Shown in pieces: positions 11,832-12,734 of a stretch of 64,000 bases of DNA; position 1 is the first letter of the stretch; each line of letters opens with the position of its first letter. A program made the position numbers and the translations under genes. Below the pieces are notes generated by a model, which saw only the letters and a program-made list of their open reading frames with translations, was not told the origin of the DNA and searched no databases. This DNA comes from Escherichia coli (GTDB lineage: Bacteria > Pseudomonadota > Gammaproteobacteria > Enterobacterales > Enterobacteriaceae): NCBI RefSeq assembly GCF_003334815.1, contig NZ_QOWO01000009.1; one strand, written 5' to 3'.

Positions 11832-12734
11832 TTAAATAAGGTTAATTACCTTATCAATCTCAGCAAGAGGTAAATTTGCCATCTCTGCAACGTCTTCCCG
11901 AGACATTCCTTTACTCAGAAGACGCTGGGCGAATTCCTGACTTACTTCCTGTCTTCCCTGCTGAATCCCCTTCTCAATCCCTTTCTCTTCAAACCACTGC
12001 GCCAGCGTCATCATAGACTCCCCTCCCGTTTCCCTGTCTCTCAACACACCGTAAAACAAATCCGCTTGTTCAGTATGACCGCGTTGCAGCATATAGTTTT
12101 GCATGGCAACTAACTGACTTCCGCTAGTGTACCCTTCGTCGATCAGCGTGACCAGTTGCTCAAGCAATAACATTAAGTCGCGCTGGCGAATATGTTTTTG
12201 CAGTAGTTCGAGAATCGCAATCCGCCGATGTTGCATGATTTCGTCATCCGGTGTGATGGTGATATCCACCAGCGGGAAAGGACTGTTATAGACGCGTCGC
12301 GCCAGCTCCGGCGAGTAAAACATATCAAACCAGCACATTGATAGCGGATAAGGTGTGGCCTCGCCCTGATAAAACAGTATCGGCACCACCAGCGGCAGCT
12401 TATCGTGGTCAGCCTCCAGATGCCGGTGCATGGCGGCTATAGAATAACGCATCATGCGAAAGGCCATTTTCTTATCCGGCTTGCTTTGGTGTTCAATCAC
12501 AACATGCAGATAACCGGGATTGCCCTGCATTTGCACGGAATAGAGCACGTCCGTGCTGTGTCCTTTCAGGCTCTCTTCAATGAAACTCCCCGACTCTAAA
12601 TGAAGCGTGTTGAGGTCACAAAGTTCGCGTAATTCCACTGGCAAATGTATCTCCAGAAAGTCGCGAGCCGTCTCCGCATGCATTAAAAATTGTTTAAATA
12701 CCGCGTCATGCGGTGTGGTACTCGGTGCATCCAT
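11832..12734 (-). CDS. yadD: Rpn-family (YhgA-like, transposase_31 / PD-(D/E)XK) recombination-promoting nuclease, RpnC
   Basis: 300-aa ORF recognised as the YhgA/Rpn family; sits on the opposite strand between panC and panD. Confidence 0.85.
   Translation of the reverse strand: MDAPSTTPHDAVFKQFLMHAETARDFLEIHLPVELRELCDLNTLHLESGSFIEESLKGHSTDVLYSVQMQGNPGYLHVVIEHQSKPDKKMAFRMMRYSIAAMHRHLEADHDKLPLVVPILFYQGEATPYPLSMCWFDMFYSPELARRVYNSPFPLVDITITPDDEIMQHRRIAILELLQKHIRQRDLMLLLEQLVTLIDEGYTSGSQLVAMQNYMLQRGHTEQADLFYGVLRDRETGGESMMTLAQWFEEKGIEKGIQQGRQEVSQEFAQRLLSKGMSREDVAEMANLPLAEIDKVINLI

Follow-up and report, generated by a model that had tools for sequence, protein, structure and literature searches.

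The rpnC (yadD) gene between panC and panD of Escherichia coli: very probably a gene-within-gene toxin-antitoxin module

The minus-strand gene that separates panBC from panD in the window, a 64,000-nucleotide stretch of Escherichia coli DNA, is rpnC (formerly yadD, b0132) of E. coli K-12 and shows no difference from that gene. Very probably, rpnC is a single-gene, gene-within-gene toxin-antitoxin module, carried in an insert that supplied a promoter region and a terminator along with it. Earlier publications already cover the gene and its family, its odd location in the pan cluster, the toxicity of its product and the antitoxin encoded within it: the insertion history was treated by Kingston in 2017 (PMC5350276) and the mechanism by Zhong in 2023 (PMC10400941). 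The locus is a clean textbook example of a wrong 'transposase' annotation, of a gene-within-gene toxin-antitoxin system and of an operon-splitting insertion without harm. The split can be harmless because the insertion lies one nucleotide upstream of what appears to be the downstream gene's own promoter. The coordinates of all features are collected in Table 1.

Table 1. Features of the panB-panD region, in positions of the window
Feature	Position	Strand	Remarks
panB	10101-10895	plus	ORF and RefSeq annotation
panC	10907-11758	plus	ORF and RefSeq annotation
Insert relative to empty-site Enterobacteriaceae, about 1.16 kb	11756-12912		Comprises panC stop TAA, terminator hairpin, rpnC and 5' region
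G+C-rich hairpin, between convergent panC and rpnC	11763-11793		Terminator scan: 12 pairs, T-rich tail
rpnC (yadD) CDS, RpnC_L	11832-12734	minus	ORF of 300 aa, ATG start, stop included
rpnC_S, antitoxin	11832-12014	minus	60 aa (start at ATG 12014) or 59 aa (start at ATG 12011); frame of rpnC_L
12-nt tandem repeat, 2.7 copies (TRF)	11956-11987		Encodes KGIE/KGIQ four-amino-acid tail repeats; hypervariable specificity determinant
Shine-Dalgarno sequence GGGAGGGGAG	12018-12027	minus	3 nt upstream of internal ATG; read from sequence
Transposase_31/YhgA-like domain	12114-12716	minus	aa 7-207; holds the equivalents D10, D62, E81, Q83, R93 and D164
Candidate rpnC_L promoter	12769-12797	minus	-35 CTGACG (12797-12792), 17-nt spacer, -10 GATACT (12774-12769); inferred
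Ancestral panD promoter-like element TAGACA-17-AATACT	12913-12941	plus	Promoter scan; lies just outside the insert, directly next to its right end
panD	13008-13388	plus	ORF and RefSeq annotation

The 2.5-kb panC-rpnC-panD stretch was 100% identical to K-12-type E. coli genomes (including the MG1655 and TG1 records), in which RefSeq labels the gene 'rpnC: recombination-promoting nuclease RpnC'. Both the sequence and the context are therefore those of K-12 RpnC (YadD, b0132), and the gene treated in PMC5350276 and PMC10400941 is the same one. Together with the list of open reading frames and the RefSeq annotation, this identity confirmed the coordinates, the strand arrangement and the name yadD that an earlier note had given from the letters alone. 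According to the same list and annotation, the next gene beyond panD is yadE, on the minus strand. The neighbours as a whole are the yad fimbrial genes, panBCD, yadE, yadI and yadGH; none of them is a defence gene, and the surroundings of rpnC in K-12 do not form a defence island.

RpnC is a significant full-length member of the Rpn/YhgA-like family (PF04754, TIGR01784, COG5464). Against the Pfam model Transposase_31/YhgA-like PF04754 it gave E=3e-87, with residues 7-207 aligned to model positions 1-201 of 203. Against TIGR01784 ('Rpn family recombination-promoting nuclease/putative transposase') it scored 298.4 bits, with a cut-off of 52.1. The RpnA equivalog model NF007361 gave 311 bits, under its cut-off of 583, which was to be expected, RpnC being a paralogue and not RpnA; the identity between RpnC and K-12 RpnA is 49% over 290 aa. 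For RpnA, mutation of each of D11, D63, E82, Q84 and R94 abolishes activity, while the D165 mutant is hyperactive (PMC5350276). These six residues align with D10, D62, E81, Q83, R93 and D164 of RpnC, and all six were invariant in 11 Rpn proteins from chromosomes, plasmids and a phage, with identities of 44-98%. The PD-(D/E)XK motif is thus present in RpnC in the variant form of the Rpn family, D ... E-x-Q (D62, E81 and Q83, plus D10 and R93). The family models and the conservation of the catalytic residues support what the earlier note had proposed, namely that yadD is rpnC and encodes a PD-(D/E)XK protein of the Rpn/YhgA family.

In the alignment of the 11 Rpn sequences, the N-terminal domain was well conserved and the tails, of 49 to 92 aa, carried variable repeats. 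The architecture of RpnC fits this family pattern, in which a conserved N-terminal domain is followed by a C-terminal tail that varies and is about 50-90 aa long. A structure prediction of RpnC from a shallow alignment, directed at the alpha-beta-beta-beta-alpha-beta core, had low confidence (mean pLDDT 57.8) and by itself gives the fold little support. Full RpnC as a query in a PDB sequence search had no match, and the tail alone matched solely a designed repeat protein. RpnA (YhgA) resembles RpnC in its domain order, in the conserved residues defined by mutation, and in having an internal Met with a Shine-Dalgarno sequence at the equivalent position. On the other hand, RpnA lies at another locus (feoC-bioH) behind an unrelated 5' region (z=2.8), and the K-12 RpnA tail is without the KGIE-type repeats that the RpnC tail has.

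Inside rpnC, two successive ATGs at codons 241 and 242 follow a strong Shine-Dalgarno sequence. A GGAG-type motif within the coding sequence, 5-9 nt before an internal Met, was found in all 12 rpn genes examined. Moreover, M242 of RpnC aligns with M244 of RpnA, which is residue 1 of the crystallised RpnA_S (PDB 7TH0). rpnC therefore has the organisation of an Rpn_L/Rpn_S gene, with an in-frame internal start where the tail begins and a ribosome-binding site in front of that start. According to Zhong 2023 (PMC10400941), such internal starts yield small Rpn_S proteins, RpnC_S included, and the Rpn_S proteins stop the growth inhibition, the SOS induction and the DNA cleavage caused by the long proteins. 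The evidence given there for RpnC_S comes from ribosome profiling, from an SPA-tag immunoblot and from a dinD-lacZ assay in which the repeat numbers either matched or did not; RpnC_S neutralises RpnC_L only when the repeat numbers match (PMC10400941). The earlier note had seen the nuclease gene but had overlooked both this internal antitoxin gene and the hypervariable repeat.

The repeat differs from strain to strain. TRF found 7.8 copies in rpnC of ATCC 25922 and 5.8 copies of a different 12-nt unit in rpnC of strain EC20, beside the 2.7 copies in the window, so that rpnC shows the strain-variable repeat of Rpn_L/Rpn_S toxin-antitoxin genes. Among five Escherichia species the rpnC tail differed in each, the variants including those of E. 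whittamii and E. albertii. In some strains the whole tail module is tandemly duplicated, which gives a separate downstream gene, rpnC_Ss. This duplication with a separate rpnC_Ss has been described before, and a functional test of the tail repeat number has been published as well (both in PMC10400941).

In line with the published work, RpnC_L can be taken as an N-terminal PD-(D/E)XK Mg2+-dependent DNA endonuclease, the toxin, joined to a C-terminal helical tail. The N-terminal domain would cut DNA with Mg2+, using D10, D62, E81, Q83 and R93 as equivalents of the active site, and the helical tail would mediate oligomerisation. Translation from the internal start (residue 241 or 242), behind its strong Shine-Dalgarno sequence, would yield RpnC_S of about 60 aa in the same frame. 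RpnC_S would then pair with the tail of RpnC_L, and DNA cleavage would be blocked. The gene is carried by an insert of about 1.16 kb, which brought along a promoter region and a terminator, and the panD promoter would be left intact. The toxin-antitoxin mechanism of RpnC is well supported. Published DNA cleavage in vitro is confined to RpnA, and the data on RpnC are those on toxicity, SOS and recombination in vivo. When overexpressed, RpnC was toxic, induced SOS late and gave a 2.9-fold increase in RecA-independent recombination in a conjugal assay; among the active paralogues it had the weakest effect on overexpression, with 59% CFU loss in a recA-deleted background (PMC5350276).

To place the gene among its relatives, 80 Enterobacteriaceae loci around PanC homologues were compared, one per species, and panC, panD, Rpn and yadE were located in each by tblastn. 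The gap between panC and panD measured 35-290 bp and held no rpn in 71 of the 80 loci. The genera with this empty site include Citrobacter, Klebsiella, Raoultella, Kluyvera, Enterobacter, Lelliottia, Leclercia, Kosakonia, Buttiauxella, Cedecea and Atlantibacter, among others. An rpn gene followed panC in 8 of the 80 loci: these were E. coli-like loci (one of them on a mislabelled MAG contig), loci of three other Escherichia species and of E. albertii, two from Pseudocitrobacter, and that of the MAG UBA5654, whose rpn copy is frameshifted. In Salmonella arizonae, the gap of 418 bp contains only the 5' region and a frameshifted remnant of the tail. This remnant was missed by tblastn of Rpn proteins but became clear by Smith-Waterman alignment in the correct frame, where it reached a score of 85 against the Pseudocitrobacter tail (z=14; the score was reached by 0 of 1000 shuffles). 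Within the species, 5420 of 5426 complete E. coli genomes carried the DNA of the nuclease domain (coverage of at least 80%), at a median of one place per genome, and the panC-panD context was found in all sampled E. coli records. Within Escherichia, the insert is inherited vertically.

The comparison of the panC-panD interval, which the earlier note had proposed as a check, thus found yadD absent from most relatives and sustained the claim that an insertion splits panBC from panD. That note had also named two outcomes that would speak against it; the gene proved not to be present in all relatives, and the protein does have a nuclease motif. Both the distribution in Enterobacteriaceae and the toxicity on overexpression, the latter being another of the proposed checks, had been published in 2017 (PMC5350276).

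Homology of E. coli to the empty-site species ends after panC codon 283 (position 11755) and restarts at TAGACA (position 12913). The insert provides the present stop codon of panC, the hairpin, rpnC and 178 bp of rpnC 5' region. In the empty-site species, panC ends with the TAG that opens the conserved 'TAGACA'; this hexamer is followed by 17 nt, the invariant GCAATACT, a hairpin, and then the ribosome-binding site of panD. As GCAATACT did not vary among the panD leaders of Enterobacteriaceae (28 of 28), panD is apparently served by a conserved promoter of its own throughout these genera. The insert is bounded exactly by the last codon of panC on one side and the panD -35 on the other, so that panD would keep this promoter, and the split of the pan cluster would be harmless for that reason.

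The hairpin at the left of the insert had a folding energy of -18.8 kcal/mol (z=-5.9), and 0 of 200 shuffles were equally stable; it is probably a bidirectional intrinsic terminator. A homologous hairpin stands at the equivalent place in Pseudocitrobacter. On the promoter side, a sigma-70 scan of the minus strand for promoters of rpnC_L and rpnC_S returned none that reached the threshold. The candidate rpnC_L promoter in Table 1 is put forward because of cross-allele conservation only: the alleles from Escherichia, Pseudocitrobacter and UBA5654, whose 5' regions of rpnC align at z=7-10, all keep the blocks GCTGACG and GATACTGC there. A search for Rfam families in 11600-13100 found none, the one snoRNA match being at chance level (E=0.28).

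The name 'Transposase_31' is of 1990s origin and goes back to the view of these genes as transposase remnants. According to Kingston (PMC5350276), the insertion-sequence idea for this gene traces to the original pan-gene study that found the open reading frame. In the same vein, the earlier note had said that the arrangement looks like a domesticated mobile-element remnant. In this reading, a once-autonomous element would have moved between panC and panD and would now be eroding. rpnC is indeed an insertion relative to most Enterobacteriaceae, the Rpn family occurs in 4840 PLSDB plasmid records and a few phages, and degraded alleles exist, namely the frameshifted UBA5654 copy and the tail-only remnant of S. 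arizonae. A patchy distribution, frequent occurrence on plasmids and the insertion of a single gene into a conserved operon are features that rpnC shares with insertion sequences. However, insertion sequences also have terminal inverted repeats, target-site duplications, multicopy spread and a DDE, HUH, serine or tyrosine catalytic domain; rpnC has none of these, and its domain is PD-(D/E)XK.

A repeat search of 11500-13300 gave only short pairs at chance level (partial matches of 10-19 nt), none of which brackets rpnC or the insert. The junctions, GCG followed by TAATAC at the left and GATGAG followed by TAGACA at the right, have no direct repeat in common and thus no target-site duplication. 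The absence of terminal inverted repeats and target-site duplications, which the earlier note had itself recorded, therefore holds. It agrees with what is known of the Rpn family, which has no terminal inverted repeats, no target-site duplications, ends of the rpn region that vary between genomes and no known autonomous PD-(D/E)XK transposase (Zhong, PMC10400941). The multiple copies at variable positions that characterise an insertion sequence were not seen in the 5426 complete E. coli genomes, and laboratory lineages showed no new insertions (PMC5350276, Text S1). PMC10400941 concludes that a transposase function is very unlikely for Rpn proteins and describes them as gene-within-gene toxin-antitoxin or antiphage modules.

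The divergence of the gene points in the same direction. Within Escherichia, the dS of the nuclease domain was 0.25-0.35, similar to that of panC and panD (0.17-0.52). The dN/dS of the nuclease domain was 0.04-0.06, which indicates purifying selection, compared with about 0.2 for the tail, and every catalytic residue is intact. This is what a functional gene would show that is passed on vertically and whose tail evolves faster; it does not fit a transposase in decay. Base composition was considered as a sign of recent transfer and dismissed: the G+C content was 48.8% for rpnC vs 51.0% for the window, and GC3 was 54% vs 56-58% for the pan genes, an offset too small for that purpose. A single near-universal copy without terminal inverted repeats or target-site duplications, whose nuclease domain is under purifying selection, makes a decaying insertion-sequence or transposase remnant extremely unlikely, and the transposon-remnant reading is already largely refuted. 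Nevertheless, the Rpn family is horizontally mobile, as seen from the plasmid records and from the phage-collection records, 10 in number, of which several are bacterial contigs.

The toxin-antitoxin module may have reached the locus once or more than once. From 32 panCD segments, Kingston 2017 inferred two introductions of rpnC at the same locus on the basis of incongruent trees, the two types being Escherichia vs Salmonella/FGI 57, and also listed single-insertion alternatives (PMC5350276). We reproduced two rpnC allele types, with 63-68% protein identity between them vs 89-90% for PanC and 97-98% for PanD. Both allele types, as well as the S. arizonae remnant, have identical junctions and homologous non-coding ends. 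At the shared left end, the insert begins after panC codon 283 and opens with the hairpin AACTGGCGC...GCGCCAGT. At the shared right end, the blocks GTACGCAAACTG-16 nt-CAGATGAG abut TAGACA, which follows CAGATGAG directly. Alignments of the 5' region between the allele types reached z=7-10, compared with z=2.8 for the rpnA 5' region. The shared junctions and non-coding ends are a small addition, as they do not appear in the consulted parts of Kingston's paper (PMC5350276).

Identical junctions with homologous ends exclude independent, transposition-like arrivals of unrelated rpn copies. Two options are then left: one ancient insertion, after which the alleles diverged, were lost in places and were exchanged, or a homing-like conversion of empty alleles. 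In the latter case, rpnC would be a selfish gene similar to a homing endonuclease gene: RpnC or its ancestor would break the empty panC/panD junction, repair would copy in a filled allele, and the site would be occupied repeatedly. Homing would explain how diverged alleles, 63-68% identical in protein, and the Salmonella remnant come to lie at exactly the same junctions with homologous hairpins and 5' regions, and it would fit the two introductions drawn from incongruent trees (PMC5350276). If true, Rpn proteins would be a new class of PD-(D/E)XK homing nucleases, restrained by an intragenic antitoxin. Like homing endonuclease genes, rpnC is a nuclease gene at one precise site, with an intact empty site in other lineages and diverged alleles sharing identical junctions. 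It differs from them in that it is not set in an intron or intein, site-specific cleavage is not demonstrated, and its flanks carry no signal of co-conversion.

Several results speak against homing. RpnA showed little or no sequence specificity in vitro (PMC5350276). Sliding-window identity revealed no co-conversion tract in the panC and panD sequence beside the insert; co-transfer of the pan flanks between Escherichia and Pseudocitrobacter was rejected likewise, as identity was not raised beside the junctions. The dS between the allele types (1.3-1.7) approaches saturation and exceeds the 0.9-1.1 of the flanking pan genes only moderately, so that one old insertion combined with faster evolution of the protein is an equally good fit. 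Finally, Kluyvera has an unrelated insert of 160-190 bp at the same panC-panD junction, which suggests a generally permissive spot and not a specific target. On balance, a homing-endonuclease-like origin appears very unlikely, and we give the same low credence to the more specific proposal that the cassette of hairpin, rpnC and promoter region is a site-specific homing unit targeting the junction between the panC stop and the panD -35. Two further candidates were examined and set aside. The additional Kluyvera sequence was rejected as a degraded rpnC, with local-alignment z of about 0 against nearly all insert types; the exception was an isolated z=4.3 between K. sichuanensis and UBA5654. A 5' region common to rpnA and rpnC that would define a mobile unit was rejected as well, the alignment mentioned above being not significant.

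As for the physiological role of the toxin-antitoxin module, we infer by family analogy only that RpnC may act in antiphage defence. The plasmid-borne RpnP2_LS (Zhong 2023) belongs to the same family and has the same gene-within-gene architecture, and protection against T-even phages has been shown for RpnP2 (PMC10400941). By contrast, no phage phenotype is reported for chromosomal RpnC in the consulted text of PMC10400941 and PMC5350276, and, as described above, its neighbourhood is not a defence island. A search of PADLOC-DB v2.0.0 gave no significant model for RpnC, the best matches (E=0.0018 and 0.0032) being on short stretches of the tail; this library of 2023 may predate the recognition of Rpn as a defence family.

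Alternatively, RpnC could be a host recombination factor, whose selected role would be the RecA-independent acquisition of foreign DNA and not defence or toxin-antitoxin addiction. The 2.9-fold increase in the conjugal assay would agree with such a role, as would the conservation of rpnC as a core gene under purifying selection. However, the effect is small and was seen on overexpression only, alongside toxicity and SOS, and, going by the title of Fig. S2, rpn deletions were looked at only for basal recombination (PMC5350276). We regard a selected role in recombination as highly unlikely. The hypervariable repeat, which has to match between toxin and antitoxin, is the signature of an arms race and not of a housekeeping function (PMC10400941).

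The junction between panC and panD holds more than intact rpnC, the Rpn-family nuclease gene (Table). The Kluyvera spp. carry 160-190 bp at the same junction as rpnC, and comparison of this sequence with the rpnC insert gave essentially no similarity, with z (alignment score against shuffled sequences) of ~0 in all but one comparison. The presence of an unrelated insert at the rpnC junction therefore suggests that this spot tolerates or attracts insertions. E. albertii and Escherichia sp. E1V33 have an extra segment starting '...AAGTTGCAGGAAGGCGGCAAGCGAGTGA...', which we take, by resemblance, to be a candidate ERIC/IRU intergenic repeat. 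In some E. coli strains, the panC-rpnC-panD interval is interrupted by IS2 or IS1A (database hits H1 and H32).

Features at the panC-panD site and in related sequences (L, fetched sequence records, each in its own coordinates)
Feature	Coordinates	Source	Position
panD-leader hairpin	window ~12958-12978		3' of GCAATACT element (alignment A2)
Split rpn gene	L011:5946-6832	Enterobacteriaceae MAG UBA5654	panC-panD site
rpnC remnant	L028:5850-6267	Salmonella enterica subsp. arizonae	junctions those of E. coli rpnC
Non-rpn insert	L016:5850-6032, L017, L029, L079	Kluyvera spp.	between panC stop and conserved TAGACA
Extra segment	L008:2620-2840	E. albertii	panC to rpnC 3' end
Extra segment	L005:5853-6130	Escherichia sp. 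E1V33	panC to rpnC 3' end
Rpn homologue gp15	L087:2992-3996	Sodalis phage phiSG1	
Second, free-standing tail gene	L001:2439-2636, L002:5732-5929, L004:3717-3902		downstream of rpnC

Two rpn alleles are degraded. The split of the UBA5654 gene into two ORFs (41 and 226 aa) points to a pseudogene created by a frameshift. At the S. enterica subsp. arizonae locus, all that is left is the rpnC 5' region together with a frameshifted tail resembling Rpn_S, the small antitoxin from an internal start; with the nuclease domain deleted, the locus is an antitoxin-only relic. The nearest type to this tail is that of Pseudocitrobacter/UBA5654 (z=14).

Many E. coli carry a free-standing tail gene of 65 aa, annotated as 'RpnC/YadD family protein' or 'transposase, incomplete'. 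Its origin is tandem duplication of a tail module of ~270 bp. The K-12 rpnC has one tail only, and its 3' flank aligns with that of the downstream copy. The phage homologue gp15 (45% identity) ends in a tail of 92 aa in which the four-amino-acid units GRQE/GRQD are repeated in a long run; the annotation marks this run as a repeat_region, and the gene adjoins RecE/RecT-like genes.

The panD leader (window 12913-13007) showed unusually high conservation across the 28 genera of alignment A2. Every leader contains (T)AGACA-17 nt-GCAATACT, with GCAATACT identical in 28/28 Enterobacteriaceae, and the TAG of TAGACA is the panC stop codon in species whose gap lacks rpn. The hairpin stem is kept although its sequence varies by genus, with both-side changes among sequences for 7 of the 8 stem pairs, and a T-rich run follows in most genera. 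The leader resembles a promoter with a structure downstream of it that is terminator-like or attenuator-like; no Rfam match was found.

Some record labels deserve mention. The 4.3-kb contig L004 (CALXDF010000219.1), labelled as an 'uncultured Oscillospiraceae bacterium' MAG, has rpnC and a panC that is E. coli-like at 99% identity; binning contamination is the probable explanation. Among the PLSDB records filed as 'plasmid', several measure 4.8-4.9 Mb (hits H44, H47 and H49) and are evidently chromosomes, and panD-rpn-yadE was found on a 127-kb record typed as plasmid (hit H40).
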